Positions 13,440 to 45,275 of a DNA stretch of 64,000 nt are shown here, piece after piece. The stretch comes from Blasia pusilla. Lineage: Eukaryota. A program made the translations under genes and the position numbers. Within the stretch, counting starts at the first letter, position 1. Each line of letters opens with the position of its first letter. The stretch is taken from assembly GCA_050084515.1 (NCBI GenBank), contig CM114271.1, forward strand, positions 9,176,001 through 9,240,000. The letters run 5' to 3'. The notes under the pieces are model-generated. The model searched no databases, was not told the origin of the DNA, and worked only from the letters and a program-made list of their open reading frames with translations.

Positions 13440-13789
13440 AGTCCCATCACTCAAGCAGTCAACCTGTCAGAATCCGACAGGTTGCCTGGAAATGGTTAAA
13501 AAGTTGCAGTGGGCAAAAAGCAAAAAGTCGGAATCATACGGGTTGCAGAATTGTACCAAAGGAATGTCCTGGGATTCAAATGGCTCCTATGGCCGATTGT
13601 AGACGGGGATCGAAAATGTTGGCGAATTCGAGAGCCTTGCCCCCGCCCTAGGTACCCCATAACGGTCCCATATAACCTGATTTGAGTCCCACCGCCTTCC
13701 TCGGCAGTATACCTTGTACGCTCTGCAATGTGACACCCATCCAGTATCAATATGTGCTCCGTCCTTGGTAATACCAATATGGCAATCGA

Positions 13790-16559: not shown

Positions 16560-16962
16560 GAGGAGCGGTAAGAGAAGAGGAAGAGAGGAAGAGAGGAGAG
16601 AGGAGAGAGGAAACTAGGGTCAACCGAAATTGATACTCTTTTTTGAAGAGAGTTTCCGTCGGGTTGAAGAGAGGAAAATTTTGGTTTGAAATTTTTTGCA
16701 CTTTTTTGTTCATATATTAAGCAATCCCACAGTTTTTTTTTCCTCTTCCATATTTTGGCAACCCCTCTGAGTCCGACGAGTTGCAAATTGCACAAATTTT
16801 AGAAAACTGAAAAATCAGTGGAATCATAAGTGTGGAACCAATCACTTTTTCCATCCAAGGTCTTGAAATAATCTGTCATTTTCCCGGGGCTGAATAGAGT
16901 TCAAGCTCGAAGTGAAGGTTGAGAAAAAAATAAAAGTACAATCTAAAACCTCCTTTGCATCC

Positions 16963-19785
16963 TTAAAGTGGTTTGTTTAAAATACTTCGCACTTCTTTGA
17001 GGGACAGACTTGGTTGGTGGATTCCTACTCCTACCTCCGACTCTCTTAAAACTACCAGCAACACATAGTACATGTGCTTACAAGGGAAATACCTTTTGCC
17101 ACTTGTCTCTCTTTGGACAAAGTCATCACATGAACATGTGGGAAAGCAACAGATGTGCACCACATACACCCCTGTGACACTTGAATTTCTGATGTTGTTC
17201 GACCCAATACATCCTTCCTATTCCATTGCCACTCAAGACATCTTTTGTGGCGATGATCTCCATTTTTGCCTCCCAGTGCTTTGCATTCGCTTTGCTCTCT
17301 CCACCGTTGGCCTGCACATTTTGTTTCTCTTCACCCCATTTCTAGACTCAAACAGAAATAATGGATTGAGATCATCCACCTTCTCCGGGTACATGTTGAC
17401 ATCAATCTTAGGTTGAATAAAAAATGCGAAGGTCTATGTAATGCGAACATGCTCCGAACTTCCCCCGTCTACGAGTCTGAAACCGACACTTGTAAGATTG
17501 TCCACTTCGTCTTGAGTGCAGTTCGTGCCTGCGGCGATGGGCCAAATCGTGGGGGTATTCCTGGGAGCTCCAATGGCAGCCGGATAAGACTTCCGGAAAG
17601 CGCAAGATTCATTTGGGTAGAAGAAGTACTTCAATTGATCCCCGGTCCTCGTGAAACGATCAAAGGTTTTGAGTCCCCAAAACCCACGCAGAGGTCGTCC
17701 AGTCCTTGTACAGTTCTTATTTAGGAAAGTGCCGCATGCTCTCCTAATGCCATCAGATCCTGCCCTGCAGGTGGGTCCACATCCTGGGTTGCTCCGAGAT
17801 ATATGCCACCGTTTTAGGTTGCAATCCACCTCCATAACCGAATCCCATATTGTTGAACCACCCCAGTGACAGGATGTTGCAAACTTCCAGCAACGGAGGG
17901 CTTTTGAAATAAAACATTCACTGATTTTGGAGAAGTAACTCCATCACGGATTTGGGACGAGTCCGGGGTCCCCGAATACCTGGGCGGTGTAATTTCCTCA
18001 TCCAAATCATTCACCGGATTCGTTCCTCGATGCTGCCTCTTCACCTGCCTGAAGTCAAGATACTTATCTGGTCTCCACAAGTCTCGTTCGGATTGCTCTA
18101 CCACCATCTGTATGGGACCTCTTGAAACCCGCCCACGAATATCCCCACCTATGTGTACGTCTTGCTCGAGTGGAGTTCCAGCTACGCACCGGTTGAAGGC
18201 TTCGACATATAATTTTTCATCACCAGATCTCACAGCCGCCCTGACATAGAGCTCGTAGATCGACGGCCCCTTTCCTTTTGTTATGCATTTTGTGAGAAAG
18301 ATATGGGATGTTGCAGACTCTAGCATTGCTGTTGCTTGGTCTTGTTGGCATGCCTCCACAAGTGAAATTCGTTGGCATGCTTGTGACGACCTCCAAGAGG
18401 AATGAACACTTTCTACTCCACTTGTGTTGGGGCAGAGGGCATTTTCATGAACGTTCAATCCCTGCAACCACGGCAATGTTAGAAGGGAACGAAAGTAACT
18501 CAAGAGTCAAAGAAATAAGCGACCTATCGGAACCAGACGGGTTGCAGGCCCGAGGCATCCCATGAACGACTCTCCGACCCGTTTGGTCCCGACGTGTTGT
18601 AACCTTAAACCCACCTACTGCAACCCGTCGGAACCCGACGGGTTGCAAGGCCGAGGCATCCCATGAACGACTCTGTGACCCGTCGGGTCCCAATGGGTTG
18701 CACACTCGCGTTGCACCAAACATCTGGATGCAACCCATCGGTTTCCGTCGGGTTGCACACTCGGGCAACCCGTCGCATCCGACAGCTTGCTTGGTTTCTT
18801 GGGTTTGAAATCCATATAATTCCACCGCTTCTCACCGTGAGCTACAACTTTACAAATAATTCTCAGCGTGAGCTTGACAAGACAAAATAGTGAACTCACC
18901 TGCCGCATGAAGTTTCCCCATTGTCTCATACGCATCTGATCCACGAATCAACCAAGAGCACAACTCTTTGTACTTCCCTCAATCGCATGTCGCCTCCACC
19001 ACCCATGAAGTTCTTCTGGCATTCCATGGCCTGCTTCAAGGTTTTGTTGTCCTTGCAGCGTTGGAGTAGAGTGACATGCTCTGTCCTCTTATTCTCCTTT
19101 ATGCAAGATTTGGTGTACCGGGTCACAGACTGTTGCCAATGGAAAGCATCCAACCTTTCCCTCTCCTGTTGAACCTCTCCACCCCATAACACTTCCCGGA
19201 TAGCAATCCACCCAGGTTGTGCATTGTCCGCCATGAACCCATAAATTTCCGGAGGTGGCCTTTTGTTTTCCTTCACCACCTCCAATAAGAGTAACCAGCA
19301 CATCTTCAAACTGCCAACGTCTTCTGCCTTTACTTCACAGACAAATCTAGTTTTGAGTCCCTTCTCCATATGGTCATCAAGGTGAGCACCCATCGTCAAC
19401 CATCTATTCAGCACTCTGTAGCAAATATCAAAGCTTACCCAGCTGCCGTAAAGATCTTCCCCTTCCCTTATTCGATCTATAAGATTGAGGCCACTCGACG
19501 GACCTGTGGTTGACATTTTGAAGACATAGGCCCTGGATCCCTCGCCTCCTTGGCCCATGAACTGCCATCTCTGAATGAATGGAAATCTGGAGTTGGCCTT
19601 GATTCTGGCGATGGCATCCATTTCGGCCGTCTTTCCATCCAGAACTCGTATCTGACGCAACAAATTCCGGAAGCATTCAGGATCAGCGAGAAATGCGAGA
19701 TTTTCCTAGAGTTGTTTCTCCTCAACCGCCGTGATCTCGCCCTGTCCAGGGATTCCAAGAAATTGTTCACAAATTTGTGATGCCG
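16963..19785 (-). pseudogene. MULE transposase, 5'-truncated (DDE core and SWIM finger)
   Basis: VSFDICY, FMADNA, DAFHW, PNTSGVESVH and C-terminal CSCDDF...PCKHM. One palindrome-rich intron at ~18461-18899. Confidence 0.85.
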
Positions 19786-22700
19786 GATGAGGAATCTGCA
19801 TTTCTTCATCTGGGATGGAAATCACAGGTTCATGGCGGAGACCAAGTTTGCGGAGGAGCGGCCCAACTCATTGGAGGCACATTTTTGCGTGAAGGCAGTG
19901 GTCCTTCACCCATTCCCTCATCACATGGCGACGGTGGAGATGGCAATGCATGCCATGAACATGTGAGTATCTTTAACACTTACGCAACTCGTCGGACTCC
20001 GACGAGTTGCTCGATTGATGAATGGGTTAGGTTTTTTTTTGCCGAAAGAAACTCGTCGGACTGCGACGGGTTGCTCGACTCGATGCTTTTTCGGATATTT
20101 TTTTAAGAATGCAACTCGGTCGGACTCCGACGAGTTGTTTGATTGACCACAAATTTAATTAGTTTTTGGCCCAAAGCAAACCGTCGAAGTCCGACGGGTT
20201 GCTCGACTCGCCGCCTTGTCAGGATGTTTTTTGAAGAATGCAACTCGTCGAACTCCGACGAGTTATTCGATTGACCGCAGGTTTAGTATGTTTTTTGCCC
20301 AACGCAACCCGTCGGAGTCCGACGGGTTGCTTGCCTCGAAACTGTTTTTGGCCGAAATCAACTCGTCGGAGTCCGACGGGTTGCATTCGGAAGTTGGTTC
20401 CCCAAATTTTGCATCAAATTGCAAGTTTCCATTCAATTGCGCAACCTGTCGGACTCCGACAGGTTGCTATGTTTACATAAGTATGTTCAGTTGCACAACC
20501 CATCGGAGTCCGACGGGTTGAAACCAGGCATTATCAAATCTGAATGCAATCCGTCGGACTCCGACAGGTTGCATCATTTAGCTCGTTCTTAGAATCCGAC
20601 CTTGAGTTGTGACGACCCTTCGGACTCCGATGGGTTGCAGGAACCCATGTAATTTCCTGACAGGTTGAGTTTGGATGTGCAAGATTGTATCGGAGGGGAA
20701 TGTCATCCACCACTGGATCCAGGACTGCGATCGGGTGAGGAAGGTGCTTACGACGCACCCGGGAGAGTACAGGGGGTTCTTGGGCGATACCCTTGTTAAT
20801 CAGATGCTTGCAAAGGGTGTTTAGATTAAAAAGAAAACTTGGGCAAATAAGTTTATTTCCCAAGATGCAGCCGTAACCATCCTTTGCTGGTCGAAGATAC
20901 AGGCCACGAAGAAGAGCGCTGCACTGGAGCTGCAGCGGAGGGAGAAGGTATCTGCGTCTGAGCGCGTGAAATTCATCCAAGCAGCAATATCTGTAGCAAC
21001 GAAATACACGGCGAGCAAGATGCAGCGATACATCAGCATTCTCAACCCCGAACTTGGTCCGAAGTTCTACAAGGAGCTGAAGGCGATTATCAAGCGCCAG
21101 CGGAAGAGGGATGAAGATCCGCATGGTCGGATTGGGGAGAAAGTGTCCCTGGATGGCGTGCATTGGTTTGCGTTGTCCGGCATAAGCGAGTTTAGGAGGA
21201 TCCGACTGATGAAAATCAGTCTCGAGGGCACAGAGGCCCAGAAGAGGGCGGCACACCATCCTCCGGGTGTGTCCGATCCAGTGATCTCCCACTGGCTACG
21301 CGAATGGTCGTTCTGGGACGCGTTGCGGTTATCGTGAAGTCCGTCTTTGGACGGATGCAAAGCGAGCTCGAAGATTAGAGCCCAACCCGGATGAAGCAAA
21401 CCTTGAAAGCTCTGGAGATTTCGAGGTTTGGCTCGACGACATCCGAGACAAGCCAACCAAAAACCCAGGATTCAAGACAATGTTCAAGGTTTGCGTCCTC
21501 CCTCAGGCAGAGCTTGACGAAGAAGTAGAGGGGAACAAACGGGATCAAGCAAAGAAGAAGCGAGATCTGCAGGAGCAGACGGCCGATTCTGTTCGACAAA
21601 AAGCTGCCCAACGGATGGTCTTCAGGTACCTCGTCCAGTGTAAGAATGCAGGTACGTGGGGAAAATTACCGGCAGCCTTGAAATTGTGGGCTTCATCGCT
21701 GGATGCAGAGACATTCTCCATGTATGACATGGAGATGGGGCAGCACATGTCCGATTGGGAGGTGGAGAATTGTCCCATTTGGCTCGACTTCAACGACCCT
21801 GAAAACATCACCGATAAGGATTTACGAGTGCTTCATGATGCAGTGGCCTCAGGACAAGACGACATCCCCAATTTCGTGCAGCCTGAAGACTTCTTCGGAG
21901 CAGATGCAGAAGAGCAAGCCCACGAGATAGCTGAGTTGGCTTCCAAGGTCCGCACAACCAAAGACAAATCCACAACGGGTCTCAAAGGCAAGGCGAGGGG
22001 AGGAAAAAATTCCGAGGCCGAGTCTTCCCAAAGAGAGGTCAAGATTCAAGGCCGAGGCGGAATCGTTCGAGCGGCGAAAGGGAGAGAGGGTCGGACCAGG
22101 TCCTCGGCAAAAAAAACCCCACCAGAGTCTGAGGTCATAGAGACCCCGACAAGCCGTCCGCAGACTCGGGAGAAGCGGAAGCGAGAGGTGCCAGGGTTGT
22201 CCCAAGGAGAATACAGTCCATTATCCTTGGGAAGACACAGACAAACAACGACGCGGACAAGCGTCCTCCTTCAGTTCACTCCTTTACTAGATGAGCTGAA
22301 GAGCTACAATTCTCAAGCGTCGACACCAACCATCGATAAATTGACAACGCTGGGATGGAAGCTCCAACGAAACGGGCACGCTGCCTGGACGGTGAATGGA
22401 GTGGTCGAAGAGGTTGCGGTGGATCTCTTTATCGCTGATCTGCCCTCGGGGTTGCGACTTTGGGGCGAGAATCCGTCGGACGAGGTACCTGAGTGGAATG
22501 TGCCGCTCTCTTATAACCAAATTGCGCTATTGTTCTCCTTTGCAGACGCCTATCTGAATGACAGGGGCTGCTTCTTGGTGTTGACTGGAGGGAGCAAGGA
22601 CGAGCTCTTCAACCTCCAGTGCGTGAAGAGGTCGCTAAAGTGGAGGACGGCGCAATCGTGGATCATAAAAAATGAGTACCCACTCCGATCCGCGACGAGT

Positions 22701-23752
22701 AAGATTCGGGTAAGGCTCAATTCCTGTACTATAATCTCAATTATATTTTAATGATGTATATAATGAGTGTTTATCTCCGTTGAGTGAGTATAATGAGTGT
22801 CAATCTCCGTTTTTTTTGTCCGTGAGCAACCCGTCGGAAGGCGACGGGTTGCAGGCTTAGAGCAGCCCATGCTCGGCTGAGAGCAGCCCATCGGTTTCCG
22901 ACGGGTTGCATCTTTCCCACATACACAGGGAAAACAATGGTGTACCTGCAACCCGTCGAGACCCGACGGGTTGCACTTGCTTTTGGTTTTTCCCTGTGTT
23001 TCGAAAAGTCGCAACCCGCCTCGATAGCGACGGTTGCTCTCAGCGAGCATGGGTCGCCTAAAAACAACCCGTCGCCTTCCGACGGGTTGCTCACGGACAA
23101 TAACAACGGAGCCCGACGGGTTGGTCCGGGACAAAACAACCCGTCGGACTCCGACAGGTTGATCCAAAGTTAGTAATTGAAAATTTTCTTAAGCCGACTT
23201 CTTTAGTTGCTGACATTGTTTCCAACGTGCTTATTTACAGATGGACCACTCCTACGTCTACTTCTTCGTTCGGCCTGAGCACAATTTCGAGGTGTTCAAG
23301 ATCCAGGATCCTGTGGATCCATGCTCATATGGGTACAGCTTAGATAGTTTGTACAATCCCCCCCGGGAATTTACATGCAAGACAGTACCCCACTTCTGGG
23401 AGGAAGGGAAAAGTTGCCAGCCTTGATGCAAACGCTCATCGAGCTCTGATCAAGGCCGGGTGACTTGGTGTTCGACTTAGTGGGACTTTCAGGGGCAAGT
23501 ATCAAAGGCGCATGGCAGAGTGGCAGGAACATTCTTTGCCTCGAGGGAAGGCATGAACTCTTTGACCTTTGCAAGGAGGCAAAGGCAGAATACGAAAGGC
23601 TCGTTGGGGCGTACAACCATCCACCAAAGCCGAGAGCTCCGGTTCCAGACCCACCCTTGATAGTGACTCCATCGTCACTTCCAACGATTCCAAAAATCGG
23701 GAGGGCAAGGCCGAAAGTAATTTTGCAAGAGCTCTCGGACGATGACAAGTGA
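19785..23752 (+). pseudogene. ParB-like + amino-MTase-like cargo gene, copy C (longest contiguous stretch, 5'-truncated)
   Basis: Exon fragment with WDGNHRF to 19962; intron 19963-~20682; long exon to 22709; intron 22710-23240; last exon 23241-23752. Splice phases give continuous frames apart from scattered lesions. Confidence 0.8.
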
Positions 23753-24955
23753 GTTCAAAGAACTCAATGACCCAGCTTGATTGCAACGTTTGGAGTAGGG
23801 AGTTTTTTGATGATGAGGCAAAAGATTTCATAGAATAGATCAAATGTATAGCTACAAGCTTTTTTCGGATGATATAAAGCAGAAGATTTTTTCGAACGAT
23901 GGTGGTGCTTGTAAAAGTTTGCTGAAAATTTTTTGTCTTTTCGAATGTGATCGTCTATGTACTCCGCGGACTTCTATTTTGCAACCCGTCGGATTTCTCT
24001 TGCTTGCAACTTTTCACTTTTTGACCACTGCAACCCGTCCGATTTCTCCTGCTTGCAACTTTTCACTTTTTGACCACTGCACCTTTTTACCACTTCCAGG
24101 CAACCTGTCAGATTCCGACAGGTTGCCTGATCGGACTCTTTCCCTGTTGGTCCAACTTAAGAGGCAGTCTGGCGAGCTTCTTCCCTTGGCACCCTCCCCT
24201 CAACTCGTAAAGGCAGGCGTAGGCTTCTTTTCTTCTCTCAGACGTGTTGGATTCCTACTACCTGTGCAATTGCCATAATGGTATTACCGGGGACGGAGCA
24301 CATATTGATACTGGATGGGTGTCACATTGAAGAGCGTATAAGGTATACTGCCGAGGAAGGCGGTGGGACTCAAATCAGGTTACATGGGACCGTTATGGTG
24401 TACCTAGGGGGGGCCAAGGTTCTCGTATTCGCCAACATTTTCGATCCCCGTCTACAATCGGCCAGAGGAGCCACTTGTATCCCAGGACATTCCTTTGGTA
24501 CTGTCACCGAGGAAAGTTAGGAGTAAATTTGGAGGTGCGGTAAGACGAGAGGAAGAGAGGAAGAGAGGAGAGAGGAGAGAGGAGAGAGGAAGAGAGGAGA
24601 GAGGAGAGAGGAAACTACCTTCAACCGAAATAGATAATTTTTTTTGAAGAGAGTTTCCGTTGGGTTGAAGAGAGGAAACTTTTTGTGTGAATATTTTTGC
24701 ACTGTTTTGTTCATTTATTAAACAATCCCACAGCTTTTTTTTCCTCTTCCATATTTTGGCAACCCCTGTGAGTCCGACGAGTTGCAAATTGCACAAAATT
24801 TTTGCAAATTGCACAAAAAAAAGTGTGGAACCAATCACTTTTTCCATCCAAGGTATGGAAAAAATCTATCATTTGCCCCGGGCTGAATAGAGTTCAAGCT
24901 CAAAGTGAAGGTTGAGGAAAAATAAAAGTACAATCTAAAACCTCATTTTGCATCC

Positions 24956-27900
24956 TCAAAGTGGTTTGTTTAAAATACTTCGCACTTTTTTTAGGGACAG
25001 AATTGGTTGGTGGATTCCTACTCCTACCTCCGACTCTCTTAAAACTACCAGCAACACATAGTACATGTGCTTACAAGGGAAATACCTTTTGCCACTTGTC
25101 TCTCTTTGGACAAAGTCATCACATGAACATGTGGGAAAGCAACAAATGTGCACCACATACACCCCTGTGACACTTGAATTTACAGTGTTGTTCCTGACCC
25201 AATACATCCTTCCTATTCCATTGCCACTCAAGACATCTTTTGTGGCGATGATCTCCATTTTTGCTTCCCGAGCTGATGCAATTCGCTTTGCTCTCTCCAC
25301 CGTTGGCCTGCACATTCTGTTTCTCTTCACCCCATTTCTAGACTCAAACAGAAATAGTGGATTGAGATCATCCACCTTCTCCGGGTATATGTTGACATCA
25401 ATCTTGGGTTGAATACGAAATGCGAAGGTCTCTGTAATTCGAACATGCTCCGAACTTCCCCCGTCTACGAGTCTGAAACCGACACTTGTAAGATTTTCCA
25501 CTTCGTCTTGAGTGTAGTTCGTGCCTGCGGCGATGGGCCAAATCGTGGGGATATTCCTGGGAGCTCTAATGGCAGCCGGATAAGACTTCCGGAAAGCGCA
25601 AGATTCATTTGGGCAGAAGAAGTACTTCAATTGATCCCCGGTCCTCGTGAAACGATCAAAGGTTTTGAGTCCCCAAAACCCAGGCAGAGGTCGCCCGTCC
25701 TTATGTACAGTTCTTATTTAGGAAAGTGCCGCATGCTCTCCTAATGCCATCAGATCCTGCCCTGCAGGTGGGTCCACGTCCTGGGTTGCTCCGAGATATA
25801 TGCCACTGTTTTAGGTTGCAATCCACCTCCATTACCGGAATCCCATATTGTTGAACCACCCCAGTGACAGGATGTTGCGAACTTCCAGCAACGGAGGGCT
25901 TTTGAAATAAAACATTCACTGATATTGGAGAAGTTACTCCATCACGGATTTGGAAGCAATCCGAGGTCCGCGAATACTTGGGCGGCATAATTTCTTCATC
26001 CAAATCAATCACTGGATTCATTCCTTGATGATGCCTCTTCACTTGCCTGAAGTCAAGATACTTATCTGGTCTCCACGAGTCTCGCTCGGACTGCTCTACC
26101 ACCATCTGTATGGGACGTCTTGAAATCCGCCCACGAATATCCCCACGAATGTGTACGTCTTGCTCGAGTGGAGTTCCAGCTACGCACCGGTTGAAGGCTT
26201 CGACATACAATTTTTCATCACCAGATCTCACGGCCATACGACATAGAGCTCGTAGATCGACGGCCCTTTTCCTTTTGTTATGCCTTTTGTGAGAAAGATA
26301 TGGGATGCTGCAGGCTGTAACATTGCTCTTGCCTGGTCTTGTTGGCATGCCTCCATTAGTGAAATTCGTTGGCATGCTTGTGACGACCTCCAAGAGGAAT
26401 GAACACTTTCTGCTACACTTGTGTTGGGGCAGAGGGCATTTTCATGAACGTTCAATCCCTGCAACGACGACAATGTTAGAAGGGAACAAAAATAACCCAG
26501 GAGTCAAAGAAATAAGCGACCTGTCGGAACCAGATGGGTTGCACGCCCGAGGCATCCCATGAACGACTCTGCGACCCGTCGGGTCCCGACGTGTTGTAAC
26601 CTTAAACCCACCTACTGCAACCCGTCGGAACCCGACGGGTTGCAAGGCCGAGGCATCCCATGAACGACTCTGTGACCCATCGGGTCCCGACGGGTTGCAC
26701 ACTTGGGTTGCACCAAACATCTGGATGCAACCCGTCGGTTTCCGTCGGGTTGCACCCTTGGGCAACCCGTCGGTTTCCCTCGGGTTGCACACTCGGGCAA
26801 CCCGTCGGTTTCCGCCGCGTTGCACACTCGGGAAACCCGTCGCATCCGGCAGCTTGCTTGGTTTCTTGGGTTTGAAATCCATATAGTTCCCACGCTTCTC
26901 ACCCTGAGCTACAACTTTACAAACAATTCTCAGCGTGAGCTTGACAAGACAAAATAGTGAACTCACTTGCCACATGAAGTTTCCCCATTGTCTCATACGT
27001 ACAGTCCACCACCTCAACCAAGAGCACAACTCTTTGTACTTCCCCTCAATCGCATGCTTCCTCCACCACCCATGAAGTTCTTCCTGGCATTCCATGGCTT
27101 TGCTTCAAGGTTTCTTTGTCCTTGCAGCGTTGGAGTAGAGTGACATGCTCTGTCCTCTTATTCTCCTTGATGCAAGATTTGGTGTACCGGGTCACGGACT
27201 GTTGCCAATGGAAAGCATCCAACCTTTCCCTCTTCTGTTGAACCTCTCCACCCCATAACACTTCCCGGATAGCAATCCACCCAGGTTGTGCATTGTCCGC
27301 CATGAACCCATAAATTTCCGGAGGTGGCCTTTTGTTTTCCTTCACCACCTCCAATAAGAGTAACCAAAGACATCTTCAAAGCGCCAACGTCTTCTGCCTT
27401 TACTTCACAGACAAATATAGTTTTGAGTCCCTTCTCCACATGGTCATCAAGGTGAGCACCCATCGTCAACCATCTATTCAGCACTCTGTAGCAAATATCA
27501 AAGCTTACCCAGCTGCCGTAAAGATCTTCCCCTTCCCTCATTCGATCTATAAGATTGAGGCCACTCGACGGACCTGTGGTTGACATTTTGAAGACATAGG
27601 CCCTGGATCCCTCGCCTCCTTGGCCCATGAACTGCCATCTCTGAATGAATGGAAACCTGGAGTTGGCCTTGATTCTGGCGATGGCATCCATTGCGGCCGT
27701 CTTTCCATCCAGAACTCGTATCTGACGCATCAAATTCCTGAAGCATTCAGGATCAGCGAGAAATGCGAGATTTTCCCATAGTTGTTTCTCCTCAACCGCC
27801 GTGATCTCGCCCTGTCCAGGGATTCCAAGCAATTGTTCACAAATTTGTGATGCCGTTGTGAGCTTGATCACCCCGGGCTTTGAACCGGAGAGTTTTTCAG

Positions 27901-28979
27901 AGACCTCGGCTACTTTCTTCGCCACATCCTCCTTGATGTGTCTTTGAATTGCATCGGTCACAGGATGAGTGTGGGAGCCAACATGAACTGCCAGCCTTGT
28001 ATACTCTGACGTGGAGCCCAAGTCATGGTCAATGAAAAATATGTATGCAAGACACGCTCCAACGCAGAAGGGCGATGCTTGACAATGAGGACATCGATGG
28101 CCTCCCGGCGGTATTGTGGCACCCACCTCGTATGGAGTTTCTGCATTCTTGGGGGGGAATTGCAACGTATTGACTCGCCCGTTGCGCTCTAGATACGGGC
28201 ATGCTGGACTTCTACACTCCAAGGCTCCTACGCATTGGCGGCGGGAGACAATCCAAGGACCATCTGGGATGGAAGCACTGGTCCGTTGAAGCCTGCACCA
28301 TCGATGACAATCAGACTTTCTGTCCATACCCTTCAGGCGTCCTCCATCCTTCTTTTGAGCAGGAGCAGCAAGTGGAGGCAACTCAAAAATGCAATTACCA
28401 TCGTACTTGGGCGGCAGCTCGTCGACAAGAATATGCTTGAACATTTTCAAGGGCAGAGACGAAAGCAAACTATTGCCTGATACTCGCAAGAGGAACGAGT
28501 AGGCGGACAGAGGGCCTGATTGGTGTCCGACAGATCCGCTGAGGTTGATAACATCCGGAATCTCTTCAGGAAGAACAACATTGTTACGAGTGTGCGAAGT
28601 TGGAGTCGAAGCCGGATCTGCAGAGCTTGGAGTTGCAAACGTAGAGCTCAGAGCACTAGGAAATTCTAGACCGTCTACTTGGGAAACAGATTTAATTCGT
28701 GGGCGGGCCGTAAACTCAGTATTGACCATTTGCATGTAGGAGATTCCATACTTTACGGTCTGAGGTCACTGGATGGACCGTCTCACCTATTATGTCTTCC
28801 GTACCTTCCACTCTAACATCTTTGGATACAAAGATGGTTCCAATTTGAAGAAGAAATCGAACAGACAGAAAATTTTCATCCACTGCTACGAAAGACTCAC
28901 GAGCTTGGGGTCGAATGATTTCTGGTTGAGGAAGGGCCGCCAAATGACTGCCACAAGTGAGCTTAACATAATTATCCAT
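24956..28979 (-). pseudogene. Full-length but frameshifted transposase: GCM/WRKY-like Zn domain + MULE DDE + SWIM
   Basis: Exon 1 ~28979-26967 (QCVGALECRSPACPY, CPHC, VHVGSHTHP, VSFDICY, FMADNA, DAFHW); GT-AG intron 26966-26459; exon 2 26458-24956 (PNTSVAESVH, CSCDDF...PCKHM). Confidence 0.88.
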
Positions 28980-29549
28980 TCCAAGAAGATTCCTACGGGA
29001 GGAGACTGAGAATGAGAATGAGAATATTTAATTTATAGTGAATAGGAAAAGATACTCTCGATGATTTTTCTTGACAAGATGAATTCGGTGGGGAGATTAT
29101 GCGACACAATGGATCCATTCAGAACACATTCAATTGTGTTGCAATATGTTACCGGATTTGGGAAGCAGAGGGTTGCGCATCACTTGGAACCCGTTGGAGT
29201 CCTGGTAACTCAGAAATTACCCGAAGCTTACCAAAGCCTGCAACCCGTCGGCATCGGACGGGTTGCACGCTTCTGCTAAACATTGTCGAAGCGAGCAACC
29301 CGTGGCTCTCTGGCGACTTGCTGGGATACCGCTCCTTCTTGCTCGAAGATGCGAGGCGTGCAAACCGTCTGTTCGGCGAGGCGTGCAACTGTCGCCGTCA
29401 ACGGGTTGCGCAAGGGCATCGCTTGTGGTGCGATCGGCCGGACTCGGCGACTTGCACGGGAAGCCATCGTTTCTAACCCTTGATAAGGGAAGCGCGTGCA
29501 ACAGCGATCTTGACGGATTGCCCAAAATATGTCCGTTCCGTCCCAAACA

Positions 29550-29852
29550 CGGCGGAGGCGCGCAACATGTCGGTCTCTGACGGCTTGCGCGGGTACCTCG
29601 CGTTGTTTTCCGAAGATGACGGAGGCGCTCAACCCGTCGGTCTCCGACGGGTTGCTCGCGCACGTGGCGACGTTCGGAGGATGGCGGAGGCACGCAACAT
29701 GTCGGTCTCCGACGGGTTGCGCGGGTACCTCGCGTTCTTTTCCGAAGACGACGGAGGCGCTCAACCCGTCGGGCTCCGACGGGTTGCTCGCGCACGTGGC
29801 GACGTACCCAGGATGATGGAGCCGCGCAACCTGTCAGACTCCGACGGGTTGC
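29550..29852. repeat. 132-bp tandem units, each with two palindromes, in the divergent intergenic region
   Basis: CGCAAC anchors at 29561, 29693 and 29825. The same period occurs at 44631, 44763 and 44895. Confidence 0.85.
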
Positions 29853-29912
29853 GATTTTTCACGTCCGGACTTCCGTAACATTCGGCACGTCACCGTCGAA
29901 AGGACGACGGGA

Positions 29913-29970
29913 CCCAACGGTCAACCCAACGGCTAGAAAGGTATAAATAGGGCAGAAGTCGCTCATTTCC
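29913..29970 (+). promoter_or_regulatory. Putative cargo-gene core promoter: two MSA-like elements, TATA box and Inr-like CTCATTT
   Basis: CCCAACGGTCA 29913-29923, CCCAACGGCTA 29925-29935, TATAAATA 29942-29949. Conserved in the second copy. Confidence 0.6.
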
Positions 29971-30189
29971 GGTTTCTCATTTTGCGATCCTCATTCCTCA
30001 CTCCTCACTCTCCCGTGCAGCAGCTGATCAGATACGAAGGGCATCTCACGCGGCGACACATCGCGAGTCGATAGGACGGAACGAGAGCGAGACGGTTCGA
30101 CCGAGCGATATCGGGACGATTCGAGCTAACCACCAAGGCGAGACGAGCTCCCATCTCAACATCAGCAAGGCAACTGATCAAGGGATTCG

Positions 30190-33100
30190 TCGTGGACATA
30201 GGCGGAGGCATTTCCGGCAAAAATGACGAGGAAAAAAACACAAGCCAACAAGTCCGAGAGCTTCAATCCCAAGTCCATTAGGACTCCTGCGTCAGCTTCT
30301 CCTGGGCCTCGTTCGGCGAAACTGTTTTTGGCCAAAATCAACCTGTCGGACTCCGACGGGTTGATTAGGGAAAAATAGCTTCGAGGCAAGCAACCCGTCG
30401 GACTCCGACGGGTTGCTTTGGGGCAATAACCTTCTAAACCTGCAGTCACTCGAGCAACTTGTCGGAGTCCGACGAGTTGCATTCTTAAAAAAACAACCTC
30501 ACAAGGCGGCCTATTGAGCAACCCGTCGGACTCCGACGGTTTGCTTTGGGCGAACAACTTGTTAAATCTATGTTCAATCATACAAGTCGTCAGAGTCCGA
30601 CGAGTTGCAATCTTAAAAAAACATCCGAAAAAGCGTGCGATCAAAGAACCCGCCGAGTCCGACGAGTTGCTTACCTGGCATTAGCAAATTTGAATGCAAC
30701 CTGTCGGACTCCGACGGGTTGCATCATTTAGCTTGTTGCTAGAATCCGACCCTGAGCTGTGACGACCCGTCGGAGTCTGACGGGTTGCAAGAACCCATGT
30801 AATTTCCTGACGGGTTGAGTTTGGATGTGTAGGATTGTATCGGAGGGGAATGTTACCCACCATTGGATCCAGGACTGCGATCGGGTGAGGAAGGTGCTTA
30901 CGACGCACCGAGAGAATCTGAGGGGTTCTTGGCGATGCCCTTGTCAATCAGATGCTTGCAAAGGGTGCTCGAATTAAGAAGAAAACTTGGGCAAACAAGT
31001 TTATTTCTCAAGATGCAGCCGCAACCATCATTTGCTGGTCAAAGATACAGGCCGCAAAGAAAAGCGCTGCACTGGATCTGGAGCGGAGGGAGAAGGTATC
31101 TGCGTCTGAGCGCGCCAAATTCATCAAGCTCAGATCTCTGCAACGAAATACACGGCGAGCAAGATGCAGCGATACATCTTCTCAACCCCAAACTTGGTCC
31201 GGAGTTCAACAAGGAGCTCAAGGCGATTATCAAGCGTCAACGGAAGAGGGATGAAGATCCGCATGGTCGGATTGGGGAGAAAGTGTCGCTGGATCGCGTG
31301 CATCGTTTTGCGTTATCCGGGATTAGCGAGTTCAGGAGGATACGATTGATGAAAATGCATCTCGAGGGCTCGTGAGGCCGGAAGAGGGGCACACCATCCT
31401 CCGGGTGTGTCCGATCCGATGATCTCGCATTAGCTCGCGAATGGTCATTCGGGGACGCGTTGCGGGTAATCGGGAAGTCACCGACGGTCCGATGCAAGCG
31501 GAGCTCGGAAGATTAGAGCCCATTCGCCGGAAGCAAACTTTGAAAGTTCTGGAGATTACGAGGTTTGGCTCGACGACATCCGGGACAAGCCAACCAAGAA
31601 CCCTGGATTCAAGACCATGTTCAAGGTTTGCATCCTCCCTCAGGCAAAGCTTGACGAAGAAGTAGAGGGTAACAAACGGGATCAAGCGAAGAAGAAGCGA
31701 GATCTACAGGAGCAGACGGCCGATAATGTTCGACTAAAAGCTGCCCAACGGATGGTATTCAGGTACCTTGTCCAGTGTAAGAATGCAGTGTACGTGGGGA
31801 AAATTGCCGATGAGCCTTGAAATTGTGGGCCGCCGCCGGATGCGAGAGACATTCTCCATGTACGACGTGGAGATGGGTCGACATGTCGGATTGGGAGGTG
31901 GAGAATTGCCCCATTTGGCTCGACTTCAACGACCCTGAAGACATCGTGGATAAGGACTTAGGAGTGCTTCATGATGCAGTGGCCTCAGGACAAGACGACA
32001 TCCCCAATTTCGTCGGCTGAACCAAGACTTCTTCGGAGGAGATGCGTAAGAGCAGCCCACAAGATAGCCGAGTTGGCTTCCAAGGTCCGCACATCCAAAG
32101 ACAAATCCACAGCGGGTCTCAAAGGCAAGGCGAGGGGAGGGAAAATTCAGAGGCCGAGTCTTCCCAAAGATAGGTGAAGATTCAAGGCCGAGGCGGAATC
32201 GTCGGCGGCGGGAGAGAGGGTCGGACCAGGTCCTTGGCAAAAACCCCACTAGAGTCGAGGTCATAGAGACCCGACAAGCCGTCCATGAGACTCGGGAGAA
32301 GCGGAAGCGAGAGGTGCCAGGGTTGTCCCAAGGAGAATACAGTCCATCATCCTTGGGAAGACACAGACAAACAACGACGCGGACAAGCGTCCTCCTTCAG
32401 TTCACTCCTTTACTAGATGAGCTTAAGAGCTACAATTCTCAAGCGTCGACACCAGCCATCGATAAATTGACAACGCTGGGATCTCCTTATCGCTGATCTG
32501 CCCTCGGGGTTGCGACTTTGGGGCGAGAATCCGTCGGACGAGGTACCTGAGTGGAATGTGCCGCTCTCTTATGACCAAATTGCGCTATTGTTCTCCTTTG
32601 CAGACGCCTATGTGAGTGACAGGGGCTGCTTCTTGGTGTTGACTGGAGGGAGCGAGGACGAGCTCTTCAACCTCTAGTGCGTCAAGAGGTCGCTAAAGTG
32701 GAGGACGGCGCAATCGTGGATCATAAAAAGCGAGTACCCACTCCGATCCGCGACGAGTCAGATTCGGGAAAGGCTCAATTCCTGTACTATAATTTCAATT
32801 ATATTTTAATGATGTGTATAATGAGTGTTCATCTCCGTTGAGTGAGTATAATGAGTGTCAATCTCTGTTTTTTTTGTCCGTGAGCAACCTGTCAGAAGGC
32901 GACGGGTTGCTGGCTTAGAGCAGCCCATGCTCGGCTGAGAGCAACCCGTCAGTTTCCGACAGGTTGCATCTTTCCCACATACACAGGGAAAACCTCGGTG
33001 TTCCTGCAACCCGTCGGGTTCTGACAAGTTGCTCTTAGGCGAGCATGGGCTGCTCTAGGCCAAAGCAACCCGTCGCCTTCCAACGGGTTGCTCGGGGACA

Positions 33101-33777
33101 AAAACAACGGAGCCCGACGGGTTGTTTTAGTCTCGACCAACCCGTCGGAAGGCGACGGGTTGGTCGGACAAAACAACCCGTTGGACTCGACAGTTGATCC
33201 AAAGTCGATGAATTGAAAATGTTCTCGACTTCTTTAGTTCTTGACATTGTTTCCAACGTCTTTGATTCTGAGATGGACCACTCCTACATTTCTTTGCCCG
33301 TTCGGCCCGAGCACAATTTCAGTGTTCAAGATCCAGGATCCTGTGGATCCATGCTCAAATGGGTACAAAGCTTAGATAGTTTGTACAATTCCCCCCCGAG
33401 AATTTACATGCAAGACAAATACCCCACTTACGGGAGGAAGGAAAAGTCGCGATCTGATGCAAACGCTCATCCGGCTCTGCTCAAGGCCGGGTGACTTGGT
33501 GTTCGACTTAGTGGGACTTTCGGGGCAAGTATCAAAGGCGCTGGCAGAGTGGCAGAACATTCTGCCTCGAGGAAGGCAGGAACTGTTTGACCTTTGCAAG
33601 GAGGCAAAGGCAGAATACGAAAGGCTTGTTGGGGCGTACAAATCTCCACCAAAGCCGAGAGCTCCGGTTCCAGACCCACCCTTGGTAGTGACTCCATGGT
33701 CACTTCCAACGATTCCAAAAATTGGGAGGGCAAGGCCGAAAGTAATTTTGCAAGAGCTCTCGGACGATGACGAGTGA
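30190..33777 (+). pseudogene. ParB/amino-MTase-like cargo gene, copy D; ParB exon deleted, indel-rich
   Basis: The 5' part matches 45276 onward until ~30320, then jumps into intron palindromes. Intact acceptor GTGTAG|G at 30832/30833. Last exon 33273-33777. Confidence 0.75.
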
Positions 33778-36700
33778 GTTCAAAGAACTCAATGACCCAG
33801 CTTGAGTGCAGCGTTTGGAGTAGGGAGTTTTTTGATGATGAGGCAAAAGATTTCATAGAATAGATCAAATGTACAGTTCCGAGCTTTTTTCGGATGATAT
33901 AAAGGAGATGATTTTTTTTGAACGATGGTGGTGCTTGTAAAAGTTTGCTAAACATTTTTTTTCTTTTTGAATGTGATCGTCTATGAACTCCGCGGACTTC
34001 TATTTTGCAAACCGTCGGATTTCTCCTGCTTGCAAGTTTTCACTTTTTGACGACAGCACCTTTTTACCACTTCCAGGCAACCTGTCGGATTCCGACAAGT
34101 TGCCTGATCGGACTCTTTCCCTGTTGGTCCAACTTAAGAGGTAGTCTGGCGGGCTTCTTCCCTTGGCACCTTCCCCTCAACTCGTAAAGGTAGGCGTAGG
34201 CTTCTTTTCTTCTCTCAGACGTGTTGGATTCCTACTACCTGTGCGATTGCCATAATGGTATTACCGGGGACAATGCACATATTGATACTGGATGGGTGTC
34301 ACATTGCAGAGCGTACAAGATATACTGCCGAGGAAGGCGGTGGGACTCGAATCTGGTAACATGGGACCGTTATGGTGTACCTAGGGGGGGGGCCAAGGCT
34401 CTTAAATTTGCCAACATTTTCGATCCCCGTCTACAATCGGCCAGAGGAGCGACTTGTATCCCAAGACATTCCTTTGGTACTGTCACCGAGGAGAGTTAGG
34501 AGTAAATTTGTAGATGACGAGGCTGAAGAAATCATAGACTAGGTCAAATGTACATTTCCGAGGTTCCTTCGGAGGTAATAAAGGACGAGTTTTTTCAACC
34601 CATAATGGTGTTTGTAAAAGTTTGCTCGAATATTTTTTTGGACTTGTGGATTGTGTTCTTTTAGCTACTCATAATTAAAATTCTGCAACCCGTATGATTT
34701 TGACGGGTTACAACTTTTTTCTTTTTGCCCACTGCAAATTTTTTACCATTTCCAGGCAAGTTTTCGGATTCCGACAGGTTGACTGCTTGAGTGATCGGAC
34801 TCTATCCCGGTGAGACCAACTTCTAACGCATTGTGGGGCCCTCTTAACTTTTGGCTCGTTCCCCTACATTCGCCAAACCAGTTGTAGGCTTCTTTTCTTG
34901 TCTAAGATGTGCACGATTCCTACTACCTGTCGGATTGCCATTTTGGATTCCCAACCTGTTAGATCGTCATGGGTGCAGGGTGGAAGAAAATCACTTCTAA
35001 AAATCTTTCCTTTCTTATGGTGATCTGGTGTGTTCACATTTCACAAAGTTGGTCTTGAGCAGACACCATTCATAACCAAGTTATGAATGGTTATGGGGCA
35101 ATTATGGGGCAATTTAGGAGAGGCCATGATGCAGGCAACAATCCCTGCAAAAAGAGAGGTTGGCATCCGGGTGGTCCTCCAACAAAAATACCAAGGGCAC
35201 TGCTTTTCCTTGAGCGAGACAGGGAATGTTAAGAAACTTAGGCTCACATGGAGAGTGATGGAAAAATATTTGTAGTGGTCTTATGATGTCTCCTTTTTTC
35301 TCGCCCCCAGGAAAGAGGAGGTTTTTTTAGGGCCAAATGTGGACCACTAAATACTCTCTTCTAAAGATTTCATGAATTTGAAAGCAACAAAAATTTTCAA
35401 ATATGTCAAAAAGTTTTGAAGAGAGAAGGCGGATTTGGCCCTTTTTTTTGAAGAGAGACTCTCCTCTCTTCCTCTCTTCCTCTCCTCTCTTACTCTCTCC
35501 TGCCAGAATACCAGCCCCCGTAAATTTGTAGATGACGAGGCTGAAGAAATCATAGACTAGGTCAAATGTACATTTCCGAGGTTCCTTAAGAGGTAATAAA
35601 GGAAGAGATTTTTTCAACCCATAATGGTGTTTGTAAAAGTTTGCTGGAATATTTTGTTGGACTTGTGGATTGTGTTCTTTTAGCTACTCAGAATTACAAT
35701 TCTGCAACCCGTATGATTTTGACGGGTTGCAACTTTTTTCTTTTTGCCCACTGCAACTTTTTAACCATTTCCAGGCAAGCTGTCGGATTTCGATAGGTTG
35801 ACTGCTTGAGTGATCGGACTCTTTCCCTTTGAGACCAACTTCTGACGCATTATGGCGGGCTTCTTAACTTTTGGCTCATTCCCCTACATTCGTCAAACCA
35901 GTTGTAGGCTTCTTTTCTTGTCTAAGATGTGCATGATTCCTACTACCTGTCGGATTGCCATTTCGGATTCCCAACCTGTTAGATCGTCGTGGGTGCAGGG
36001 TGGAAGAAAATCACTTCTAAAAATCTTTCCTTTCTTATGGTGAGCTTTCTTACGGGTTGGGAGGGGTGCAGCTTCTCGGTTTCTTAGCCTTAGGATCTGA
36101 TGTGTTCACATTTCACAAAGTTGGTCTTGAGCAGACACCATTCATAACCAACAGAAAGTTGGTTATGGGGCAATTTAGGGGAGGCCATGATGCAGGCAAC
36201 AATCCCTGCAAAAAGAGAGGTTGGCATCGCGGTGGTCCTCCAACAAAAATACCAAGGGCACTGCTTTTTGTTGACCGAGACAGGGAATGTTAAGAAACTT
36301 AGGCTCATATGGAGAGTGATGGAAAAATGTTTGTAGTGGTCTTATGAAATCTCCTTTTTTCTTGCCCCCAGGAAAGAGGAGGTTTTTTTAGGGCCAAATG
36401 TGGACCACTAAATACTCTCTTCTAAAGATTTCTTGAATTTGAAAGCAAATTTCAAATATGTCAAAAAGTTTTGAAGAGAGGAGGCGGATTTGGCCCTTTT
36501 TTTTTGAAGAGAGACTCTCCTCTCTTCCTCTATTCCTCTCCTCTCTTACTCTCTCCTGCCAATTACCAGCCCCCCAGCCATGGGTTACATGCGAGAGCAG
36601 TCACAATTTTTTGCACCACGAGTGCAACAACGTGGATTTCGAAAGAGTATTGTGATACCACAAGCTTAGGGAGGATACCATGACTCCGTGCCAGAGAGAC

Positions 36701-40520: not shown

Positions 40521-40939
40521 GAGGAGCGGTAAGAGGAGAGGAAGACAGGAAGACAGGTGAGAGGAGAGAGGAAGAGAGGAGAGAGAGGAAACTAGGGTCA
40601 ACCGAAATAGATACTCTTTTTTGAAGAGAGTTTCCGTTGGGTTGAAGAGAGGAAAATTTTTGTTTGAAATTTTTTGCACTTTTTTGTTCATATATTAAGC
40701 AATCCCACAGTTTGTTTTCCTCTTCCATATTTTGGCAACCCCTCTGAGTCCGACAAGTTGCAAATTGCACAAAATTTAGAAAACTGAAAAATCAGTGGAA
40801 TCATAAGTGTGGAACCAATCACTTTTTCCATCCAAGGTCTTGAAATAATCTTTCATTTGCCCGGGGCTGAATACAGTTCAAGCTCGAAGTGAAGGTTGAG
40901 AAAAAACTAAAAGGACAATCTAAAACCTCCTTTGCATCC

Positions 40940-43900: not shown

Positions 43901-43988
43901 AAGACTCACGAGCTTGGGGTCGAATGATTTCTGATTGAGGAAGGGTTGCCAGATGACTACCACAAGTGAGCTTAACATAATTATCCAT
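40940..43988 (-). pseudogene. Transposase (GCM-like + MULE DDE), SWIM region deleted
   Basis: 674-aa ORF 41734-43758; donor at 41979, acceptor before 41471; PNTSGAESVH. The 3' exon jumps directly to ILNKPL. Confidence 0.88.
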
Positions 43989-44981: not shown

Positions 44982-45040
44982 CCCAACGGTCAGCCCAACG
45001 GCTAGAAAAGTATAAATAGGGCATAAATCGCTCATTTCCC
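44982..45040 (+). promoter_or_regulatory. Second copy of the MSA-MSA-TATA promoter
   Basis: CCCAACGGTCA 44982-44992, CCCAACGGCTA 44994-45004, TATAAATA 45011-45018. Confidence 0.6.
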
Positions 45041-45275
45041 GTTTCTCATTTCGCGATCTTTATTCCTCACTCTCCCGCGCAGCCGCTGATCAGATACGAA
45101 GGGGCATTTCACACGGCGACACATCGCGAGTCGATAGGAGGGAACGAGAGCGAGACCGTTCGACGCAACGACAGCGAGACGGTTTGACCGAGCGATCGCG
45201 GGACGATTCGAGCTATCCATCAAGGCGATTCGAGCTCCCATCTCGACATCAGCAAGGCGACTGATCAAGGGATTT

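Follow-up and report, generated by a model that had tools for sequence, protein, structure and literature searches.

A decayed Mutator-like transposon in Blasia pusilla with a divergent ParB-like/methylase-like accessory gene and non-coding arrays of a 27-bp palindrome

Structure and boundaries of the element

We analyzed a 64,000-bp stretch of the Blasia pusilla genome (assembly GCA_050084515.1, contig CM114271.1, positions 9,176,001 to 9,240,000 of the forward strand; hereafter the window, numbered from its first letter), in which a Mutator-like transposon occupies positions 24532-35519. The unit is 10,988 bp long, is bounded by a 9-bp target-site duplication (TSD), and lies nested within an older member of the same family. 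A transposase gene on the minus strand (ATG at about 28979) stands head to head with an accessory gene on the plus strand, the two being separated by a 1.25-kb divergent intergenic region, and the non-coding segments of the unit carry arrays of a single palindrome. We interpret the unit as a degenerate copy, with an internal deletion, of a highly abundant DNA transposon of the Mutator superfamily (Mutator-like elements, MULEs), with a full-length form of approximately 12.4 kb and an accessory protein that may recognize the palindromes. Taken as a whole, with the mechanism for accessory protein and palindromes included, we consider this account probable but not secure.

The two ends are readily located by reading the sequence. 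The left TSD copy, GTAAATTTG (24523-24531), recurs immediately 3' of the right end (35520-35528); the first bases of the unit are GAGGTGCGGTAAGACGAGAGG and the last are CCAGAATACCAGCCCCC. The left terminal segment (24532-24612) consists of GAGGTGCGGTAAG followed by GA-rich subterminal repeats of 7, 22 and 29 bp, and the same terminus is present at 16560, 37311 and 40521. The right terminus (35459-35519) ends in CTCTTACTCTCTCCTGCCAGAATACCAGCCCCC, an end found also at 36574 and, reverse-complemented, at 47561. The tips form an imperfect inverted repeat—GAGGAGCGGTA against GGGGGCTGGTA, matching at 8 of 11 positions—and GA-rich inverted arms of 30 nt (97% complementary) lie 11-30 bp inside the ends.

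The uninterrupted target, ggagtaaatttgtagatgacgagg, can be read in a paralogous copy inside the element (about 34497-34520), and the unit is thus a true insertion into its own kin. This empty site lies in the 3' region of the element (33778-35458), together with four degenerate palindromes (34007, 34077, 34685 and 34756). Comparison of the window with itself shows that the older family copy, 16560-24537, continues in 35520-36574; the flanks of this copy (16560-36574) do not match, and it adjoins a rearranged copy. A second nested insertion has the 9-bp duplication TATAAGATC, with its left end at 40521 and its right end at 47561, the latter in a stretch that has since been inverted, so that both insertions with two readable flanks have 9-bp TSDs. 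As to the inversion itself, comparison of 47021-50426 with 40521-47023 shows that the right part of the 40521 copy has been inverted along with 540 bp of its host copy; both ends of the TATAAGATC insertion now point the same way, and the inversion breakpoint is in, or adjoins, the palindrome array at 46840-47023.

At least five partial copies, 84-93% identical, are piled at 10.4-50.4 kb, and the layout is repeated among them. The initial annotation, made from the sequence alone, had described a TSD-bounded Mutator-like unit with a divergent accessory gene and a layout recurring in several copies, and both points are borne out by the flanking GTAAATTTG duplication, the paralogous empty site, the head-to-head genes and these copies. 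In one DNA run, 132,647 contig pieces fall on the element, and its copy number is therefore very high. The copy reported here is decayed and has lost 1.42 kb internally. All of the copies in the window are broken and none is intact, which counts against taking a present-day function in this genome as given.

The transposase and its superfamily

The full-length transposase is predicted to be encoded in three exons and to be roughly 1,100-1,200 aa long. Exon 1 (26966-28979, minus strand) encodes a Cys/His-rich region followed by a DDE core (FD..., FMADNAQ..., DAFHW). It is frameshifted in the reported copy, where its open reading frame (ORF) is 535 aa (27158-28765), and intact at 675 aa in the copy at 41737-43761. 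Its last residues, RMRQWGNFMWQ, are followed by GTGAGT, the start of a 507-nt intron 1 (26459-26965, minus strand, GTGAGT...CAG) that holds seven palindromes; the metagenomic homologues P0001-P0003 run off at the same residue, into the intron at this point. Exon 2 (25790-26458, minus strand; 3' limit approximate, acceptor ...ttgcag followed by G) starts with GLNVHENALCPNTSVAESVHSSW, a putative catalytic-E signature, and reads through without interruption for 230 aa in the copy at 17814-18506. The last-exon ORF (24956-25717, minus strand) includes a SWIM-type CxC...CxH finger at about 25046-25138 that reads CSC-x16-CKH. The Pfam SWIM model matches this ORF with an E-value of 0.017 in the reported copy and 0.0028 and 0.031 in two others, all three below the 19.6-bit cutoff. 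A C-terminal SWIM zinc finger is common, although not universal, in MULEs.

Read by eye, the DDE pattern of the family is FD, then FMAD(N/S)AQ-x(n)-[C/D]xFHW, with CLFHW in P0001 and P0003 and CQFHW in P0002, and exon 2 opens with NTS(V/G)(A/V)ESVHSSW, i.e. TS-x3-ES-x-[N/H]-SW. We take the succession D...D-x(n)-[C/D]xxH and TS-x3-ES-x-[N/H]-SW to be the MULE DDE signature. The only near-length database relatives of the transposase are three unannotated proteins at approximately 30% identity (E-values 2e-47 to 6e-44), and phmmer found nothing above chance level for the transposase ORF among PDB sequences. PF00872 matches homologue P0003 weakly (E = 0.18) at the right place. In a language-model atlas the 675-aa ORF adjoins PF10551 MULE, PF21056 ZSWIM RNaseH-like and SWIM clusters (score 0.94, 171 shared features), and nine of the ten best matches that have a family share a family or clan.

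Mutator and MULE insertions typically produce TSDs of about 9 bp (8-11), and we assign the element to Mutator, confidently though short of certainty, on the strength of the 9-bp duplications and the modest support from the SWIM, PF00872 and atlas matches. Two features count against the assignment: the terminal inverted repeats are short and imperfect, and no MULE Pfam model is significant on any ORF of the window. MULEs without terminal inverted repeats do exist. A different superfamily, such as KDZ/Plavaka (EnSpm-related) or hAT, could account for the missing Pfam match, and one of the top atlas clusters, mostly basidiomycete, has no family. The TSDs, however, are 9 bp in both insertions, as against 2-4 bp for EnSpm/Plavaka and 8 bp for hAT; the termini are not CACTA-like; a SWIM-type CxC...CxH finger is present; and the atlas neighbours are mostly MULE, ZSWIM RNaseH-like and SWIM clusters. 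We therefore regard such a placement as very improbable, while noting a report in which accessory-gene homology is said to have misled an earlier Plavaka classification (10.1101/2025.02.11.637652).

The gene calls of distant relatives end where exons in the window end: those of P0001-P0003 after R-Y-R-Q-W-G-G of the transposase, and those of P0005, P0006 and P0012 after W-x-I-x-N-x-x-P of the methylase-like domain of the accessory protein described below. This agreement suggests that the intron positions, as predicted from sequence, are conserved across the family.

The accessory gene

The accessory gene of the reported copy is a pseudogene. An alignment of five copies of the gene reveals frameshifts and indels private to this copy, a 68-bp deletion at 32479, and the 1.42-kb deletion. 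Of its start (29943-30320, plus strand) there remain a TATA box (TATAAATAG, at 29943), an ATG (30225) and 96 initial nt of exon 1, which break off at the deletion junction; the frame MTRKKTQANK...SIRTPASASPGPRSA is shared with the copy at 45337. The junction is at 30320-30324, where 1,422 bp of the neighbouring copy (45404-46825) are without counterpart: in the self-comparison 25960-30320 corresponds to 40974-45403, and 30324-30520 to 46826-47023. The deletion has removed a ParB/sulfiredoxin (Srx)-like exon, with the motif WDGNHR, that the neighbour retains at 46023-46499.

Two exons of this less deleted neighbour, both outside the unit, supply the missing part. Exon 1 (45337-45960, plus strand; 3' limit set by eye) is charged and of low complexity, with one frameshift just after the ATG, and the ParB/Srx-like exon (46023-46499, plus strand) is a 159-aa ORF, PRIPLCRL...FFIWDGNHRFMAW, with the donor GTGAGT directly 3' of it. 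Within the unit, a large, decayed exon (30831-32790, plus strand) encodes a helical middle region and the N-terminal half of a methylase-like domain, with a motif IV loop, DLPSG, at 32495-32509. The last exon (33376-33777, plus strand) encodes the C-terminal half of that domain, with the S-adenosylmethionine (SAM) motif region PGDLVFDLVGLSG at 33487-33525, and matches Pfam N6_N4_Mtase (PF01555) with an E-value of 0.0081. Better ORFs are found in other copies, at 20825-21334 (170 aa), 21285-22748 (488 aa) and 13750-14274 on the minus strand (175 aa).

Introns were placed from GT..AG sites and from colinearity with homologues, chiefly the 1,244-aa Riccia protein P0019. Its residues 153-300 align with 46065-46496, 303-521 with 20690-21331, 527-606 with 21588-21842, 731-943 with 21960-22595, and 1035-1125 with 23399-23677; the best version of the large exon, 20825-21334 together with 21285-22748, is colinear with residues 303-943. 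From this colinearity the full-length gene is predicted to have about four exons and to encode roughly 1,150-1,200 aa. In order, the modelled product would have a ParB/KorB-like N-terminal module, a conserved helical middle, and a domain resembling beta-class DNA amino-methyltransferases.

With the 488-aa ORF as query, exhaustive HMMER searching returned 13 proteins at E-values of 0.001 or lower (best 1.4e-23), and a profile of the 159-aa ORF found 32 hypothetical proteins of Riccia sorocarpa (1.7e-93 to 4e-5). Residues 153-300 of P0009 match 46065-46496 at 35% identity (tblastn E = 1e-20), inside the stretch deleted from the reported copy. The other accessory relatives are from R. sorocarpa, from R. 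fluitans (a single one), or from unnamed sources, so that all named relatives are from Riccia, with 30 or more paralogues. Other searches yielded little. The 488-aa ORF had no match in a word-indexed search, the atlas gave no usable match to the 170-aa ORF, and phmmer comparisons of the 170-aa and 159-aa ORFs with PDB sequences returned only chance-level rows. Pfam gave two weak matches on eight ORFs of the reported copy; no relevant family on nine database homologues (one chance-level Ribosomal_L5 row, E = 0.025); and, on eight long Riccia proteins, two weak PF01555 matches, with five of the other six rowless and one at chance level (Lyx_isomer, E = 0.089). No relatives of P0005 were found in the metagenome contig collection, and the alignment A2 had none in the viral contig collection. 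One of the Riccia proteins, P0018 (annotated as 1,048 aa), has the ParB-like segment twice in tandem, with GKKRRDQQERGKKPK to FSTWDGNHRLITWMQ repeated; this is either a tandem duplication or an artefact of assembly or annotation.

MULEs are known to capture fragments of host genes, and a passively captured gene, as in Pack-MULEs, would have no role for the element. Such an origin is hard to reconcile with a gene that is complete, that has its own TATA box and promoter and is present in every copy covering the region, and whose protein motifs are kept at approximately 35% identity between this genome and Riccia. Its sole database relatives are multi-copy hypothetical proteins, 32 of them paralogues in one Riccia genome, a pattern that fits a gene of a transposon rather than one of the host. 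Analogous genes are moreover described as travelling with unrelated transposon superfamilies in algae (PMC12477816; 10.1101/2025.02.11.637652), and we give passive capture very little credence.

The N-terminal ParB-like module

The assignment of the N-terminal module was made through an AlphaFold2 (AF2) model of P0035, a 1,104-aa Riccia homologue, built from a 47-row alignment. The window exon 46023-46499 matches residues 108-259 of this protein at 38% identity (E = 6e-31). The mean predicted local distance difference test score (pLDDT) of the model is 62; block means are 60-96 for residues 100-260, about 74-97 for 270-450, and about 65-86 for 800-970. Structure comparison with VIA matched the N-terminal module to KorB-CTP (Z 7.4; residues 110-455, 183 aligned), PadC (6.8), the pNOB8 ParB N-terminal domain (6.3) and sulfiredoxin (6.0). 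A viral structure library returned ParB/Sulfiredoxin (1.3e-5), a chromosome partitioning protein (3.6e-3) and Spo0J (1.8e-2). The motif WDGNH is unchanged in 28 of 31 aligned rows, that of the window (FFIWDGNHRF) among them, and by eye resembles the D-G-x-H-R/G-x-x-R loop of ParB. The 159-aa ORF also matches Pfam DUF1015 weakly (E = 0.013), a family that we take to be a member of the ParB clan.

Several results stand against a ParB assignment. The ParB Z values are all below 8, a range in which, as the tool warns, they can reflect a common arrangement; the assignment runs through the model of a homologue only 38% identical to the window exon; no ParB or ParBc profile in Pfam, PHROGs or NCBIfam matched; and the family profile A3 had no match among PDB sequences. 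The window's own ParB exon gave an AF2 model with a mean pLDDT of 47.3 and a best VIA Z of 3.0, matching nothing; this model was discarded as meaningless and is not counted as evidence against the fold. On balance the modelling modestly supports a ParB/KorB-like module, composed of a ParB/Srx-type domain, which carries WDGNHR, and, after it, a helical and possibly DNA-binding region. A segment of the reported copy, 31168-31371 (VSLDRVHRFALSG), was considered as the ParB/Srx core and rejected, as in the homologue model the corresponding stretch forms helices and is found downstream of the domain that resembles Srx. The initial annotation had assigned a spliced ParB-like and amino-methyltransferase-like gene to the unit; judged by the homologue model the family does have both parts, but the ParB/Srx exon has been deleted from the reported copy and is found at 46023-46499.

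The C-terminal methylase-like domain

In the model of P0035, the liverwort homologue, the C-terminal domain has the fold of beta-class (N6A/N4C-type) DNA amino-methyltransferases. Foldseek matched it to M1.HpyAVI (1.6e-7), CcrM (2.1e-6) and the rotifer N4CMT (4.1e-4), as well as to Mbo45V Mod, M.BceJIV and M.MboIIA. With VIA, residues of about 790-1070 matched M.MboIIA with a Z of 12.2 (200 aligned, root-mean-square deviation 4.7), M1.HpyAVI with 11.6, CcrM with 11.5, M.PvuII with 11.0, M.RsrI with 10.7 and the rotifer N4CMT with 9.8. The viral structure library gave N4/N6 methylases of phages and giant viruses, the strongest at 5e-6. Sequence searches point the same way. The version of the last exon at 13750-14274 (minus strand) matches PHROG DNA methyltransferase families (8.5e-5, 1.2e-3 and 2.6e-3) and, over EKSPALMQTLIELCSRPGDLVFDLVGLSG, M.RsrI (0.024); P0019 matches the PHROG DNA methyltransferase families at 5.5e-6; and NCBIfam gave only a weak DNA methyltransferase row. 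The motif order is permuted, IV before I, with the DLPSG loop (32495-32509) preceding the SAM-motif region (33487-33525), and the latter is partly kept in the family, as DLVGLSG, DFAGGWG and DVTAHSG.

Beta-class enzymes have a catalytic motif IV of the form (D/N/S)PP(Y/F/W), the aromatic residue of which stacks on the flipped base. Twenty of the 47 rows of the A3 alignment cover this motif (another five have only fragments there), and all 20 read D-[LMIVW]-P-[TSKIFEN]; none has the double proline followed by an aromatic residue. Eighteen of the 20 have G in fifth place, as does DLPSG of the window. The loop is conserved and hence under selection. Since it lacks the second proline and the aromatic residue of established enzymology, however, methylation of adenine N6 or cytosine N4 by this domain seems unlikely from its sequence, and we call the domain methylase-like.

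An active DNA N6-adenine or N4-cytosine methyltransferase that marks the palindromes or their surroundings, as the initial annotation had supposed, would be in keeping with the fold, the order of motifs and the partly kept SAM-motif region. The loop of the 20 rows speaks against it, as does PF01555, which reaches at best 16.5-19.9 bits and is below its gathering cutoff of 26.7 everywhere. Published accounts fall on both sides: the comparable Ectocarpus protein is described as predicted to make N4-methylcytosine (4mC) or N6-methyladenine (6mA) (PMC12477816), whereas the Marchantia enzyme reported as proven active carries TSPPY (10.1101/2021.02.12.428880), and inactive METTL14-type proteins are described as having disrupted motifs (PMC4738411). 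We consider an active enzyme of this type unlikely; with the canonical motif absent throughout the family, the proposed 4mC/6mA marking is weak, and so is the analogy that had been drawn to the TSPPY enzymes of Marchantia and rotifers.

The palindrome arrays

The palindrome is 27 bp long, with 13-bp arms, and has the consensus GCAACCCGTCGGA-N-TCCGACGGGTTGC, derived from 113 sites. These 113 sites (at most 6 mismatches over 24 specified positions) compare with 0-1 in 20 shuffles of the window; the exact core has 14 matches, with none expected (100 shuffles). Every one of the sites lies inside family copies (10401-50426). In the reported copy there are 31, none of which overlaps predicted coding DNA although this makes up 54% of the element, in agreement with the initial description of one palindrome that fills the non-coding segments and is essentially absent from exons. 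The exact palindrome was absent from 185,579 prokaryotic species genomes and from the metagenome contig collection.

Apart from a single site near the left end and the four degenerate sites of the 3' region, the palindromes of the reported copy form four internal arrays. Seven are in intron 1 of the transposase gene (26516-26823), at 35- and 55-bp spacing; seven in the divergent promoter/intergenic region (29240-29852), in tandem units of 67/132 bp; seven in the intron after the ParB/Srx exon (30338-30788), in units of 64/128 bp; and five in the intron that splits the methylase-like domain (32884-33163), where homologue gene calls stop at the same place. The arms are kept across arrays that differ in their spacers and unit lengths (35, about 55, 64/128 and 67/132 bp), and this suggests that selection acts on the palindrome sequence itself.

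Decay of CpG sites in the palindromes of the kind expected from 5-methylcytosine (5mC) was looked for and rejected: CpG transitions account for 85 of 331 mismatches, at 8 of the 24 positions, which is no excess. The CpG observed/expected ratio is 0.79 in coding and 1.0 in non-coding DNA. Given this lack of excess decay, nothing speaks for the suggestion that the element is protected from 5mC silencing.

Which protein would bind the palindromes is the point at which our account meets its main rival, namely that they are binding or enhancer sites of the transposase, or hairpin-prone tandem repeats that expand where coding selection is absent, and that the accessory protein acts elsewhere or on something else. 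The Cys/His-rich N-terminal region of the transposase could bind DNA and is equally available as the palindrome binder, which must be set against our preference for the accessory protein. Transposase sites are usually subterminal, and a CCGTCGGGTTG-like half-site is located about 120 bp from the left end, with degenerate palindromes near the ends at 24759, 34685 and 34756; the tandem unit structure would suit hairpin-prone repeats. But 26 of the 31 sites are in the four internal arrays and not at the termini, their arms are kept while spacers and units differ, and ParB/KorB-type proteins are classical palindrome binders. Algal precedents are also described in which repeat arrays are paired with a ParB-domain gene (10.1101/2025.02.11.637652). 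We thus regard binding by the transposase, or repeat expansion, as a possibility of limited probability, and recognition by the accessory protein as the preferred reading.

Transcripts of the element

Three RNA runs have 228, 340 and 234 reads on the element, a low level of RNA. The reads are mostly 90-95% alike to it and so come from other copies. Over the transposase half the first mates map predominantly to the plus strand, and over the accessory half predominantly to the minus strand, which is the pattern that divergent sense transcription would give in the usual stranded library. No canonical splice joint was seen among the element's RNA reads, which are too few to reveal the predicted introns.

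Two kinds of unusual joint were also observed. The one deletion-type joint among those listed, 25635>26857, was supported by 5 reads in one RNA run and 6 in another and did not occur in the DNA run. It skips 1,221 bp and has the non-canonical ends CC..TG; it removes exon 2 and most of intron 1 of the transposase gene, and could reflect a deletion-derivative copy or aberrant processing. Fold-back ("opposite strands") joints between palindrome-array positions 29826-30722 are found in all three runs, for example 30479/30722 with 30+3 reads in X20, and may be hairpin-derived chimeras or transcripts of rearranged copies.

Other features of the window

Outside the 10.4-50.4 kb pile are remains of a Gypsy-type long terminal repeat retrotransposon, at 55671-60770 and 1-2192. 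The former includes a reverse transcriptase plus RNase H region (57952-59070, minus strand, E = 1.8e-25), a weak gag (55671-56591) and a zinc knuckle (59865-60770), and the segment 1-2192 repeats 58324-60511 at 92% identity. An inverted pair of 516 bp (53197-53712 and 61083-61598, 98.8% identity, 7.4 kb apart) flanks the retroelement remains and is far younger than anything else in the window. The segment 3939-5009 is of low GC content (41%) and contains direct repeats, about 250-460 bp in length and 79-87% identical.

A proposed mechanism

By analogy with ParB, which recognizes parS, and KorB, which recognizes its operators, we infer that dimers of the accessory protein would recognize the palindromes. 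These would then serve as a private address that distinguishes the element's own copies, and binding could let the element regulate or shield them. With a catalytic loop of D-hydrophobic-P-x-G throughout the family, the methylase-like domain more probably binds SAM or DNA than methylates adenine N6 or cytosine N4. In a more elaborate form, which we put forward only tentatively, the accessory protein would be a transposon-private, ParB-like, nucleotide-switched clamp that loads at the palindromes and spreads from the promoter and intron arrays, with its methylase domain re-purposed as a SAM sensor or a new DNA modifier. It would constitute a self-recognition or anti-silencing system in a land-plant lineage that arose independently of VANC and shares a relationship with the ParB accessory genes of algae.

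Transposon proteins that recognize the DNA of their own element are, to our knowledge, rare, the classic case being VANC of the Arabidopsis VANDAL elements, which is neither ParB- nor methylase-like; among the algal ParB/methylase accessory genes we know of none tested biochemically. The family described here adds a clearly delimited candidate site—a palindrome of 27 bp, each arm 13 bp long, in about 30 copies per element—and a predicted fusion of ParB-like and methylase-like domains in a Mutator element. It also adds named relatives in Riccia liverworts, which locate the module within land plants or close to them, a group for which genetic tools are available. A caution follows from the non-canonical catalytic loop across the whole family, in that to predict 4mC or 6mA from no more than the name of the domain may be mistaken for accessory proteins of this kind.

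Comparison with known systems

The layout is already known from algal transposons, and apparently has not yet been reported in this plant-like lineage: a full-text literature search, with subscription journals, Repbase and supplements outside its scope, found no bryophyte description of such an element. The initial annotation had taken the combination to be possibly new, a view that does not hold for brown and red algal transposons, for which ParB-like and methylase accessory proteins, inverted-repeat arrays and self-recognition were published in 2025. No algal protein is among the 13 and 32 database matches, and the comparisons with algal proteins that follow are by description only.

In Ectocarpus, Sola1-1_Ec32 is described as encoding, on the strand opposite the transposase, a 1,104-aa protein with ParB-like and prokaryote-type DNA methyltransferase parts, which is proposed to bind and modify the element that carries it; for green algae the paper in turn cites a review of 2011, and it also cites Petroll et al. 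2025 (PMC12477816). The B. pusilla gene is likewise borne by a DNA transposon on the strand opposite the transposase, with a predicted product of about 1,100 aa that joins ParB-like and methyltransferase-like parts. It differs in that Sola1-1_Ec32 is a Sola1 element of 21.5 kb in a stramenopile host, whereas ours is a MULE, and the description of Sola1-1_Ec32 mentions no palindrome arrays (PMC12477816).

Petroll et al. 2025 describe red-algal Plavaka, Zisupton and Mutator elements with a ParB-domain gene adjoining tandem inverted-repeat arrays and with an N6A-methylase gene; PAG3 is given as ParB plus a 2-oxoglutarate (2OG) oxygenase and PAG2 as an N6A methylase plus SET, homologues are reported in Mutator elements of Chondrus crispus, and the analogy to VANDAL is drawn (10.1101/2025.02.11.637652). 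As described there, these systems share with ours large DNA transposons, a ParB-domain protein adjoining inverted-repeat arrays, an N6A-methylase-domain protein and a self-binding hypothesis, and their accessory genes move between superfamilies, including Mutator, to which our element is assigned. In B. pusilla, however, the ParB-like and methylase-like domains would be in one protein, in which no SET or 2OG domain was detected, while PAG2 and PAG3 are described as separate genes; and the arrays occupy not only the promoter but also introns of both genes. ParB-helix-turn-helix-fused Dam-type methylases are also described from chlorophytes and chytrids by Iyer et al. 2016 (PMC4738411).

To the ParB and KorB proteins of bacteria, plasmids and phages, and to the ParB-methyltransferase fusions of phages, the accessory protein is linked by the predicted ParB/Srx-type N-terminal domain, the G-x-x-R-like loop (DGNHR) and the best structural matches (KorB-CTP, PadC and pNOB8 ParB-N); its candidate recognized DNA is a palindrome, as are parS and the KorB operators. 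It differs from them in giving no ParBc profile match and in being eukaryotic, spliced and much larger, with a 27-bp palindrome in dozens of copies per element. The rotifer N4CMT (PDB 8s9m/8s9n) and Marchantia MpDN4MT1 have the same beta-class fold that is modelled for our domain, but are host genes reported to keep (T)SPPY (10.1101/2021.02.12.428880), where the transposon-borne family has D-hydrophobic-P-x-G. With VANC of the Arabidopsis VANDAL MULEs the likeness is one of arrangement, and no homology is claimed: in both cases a MULE accessory protein is thought to recognize short motifs accumulated in the non-coding DNA of its own element, as set out for VANC in 10.1101/2025.02.11.637652.

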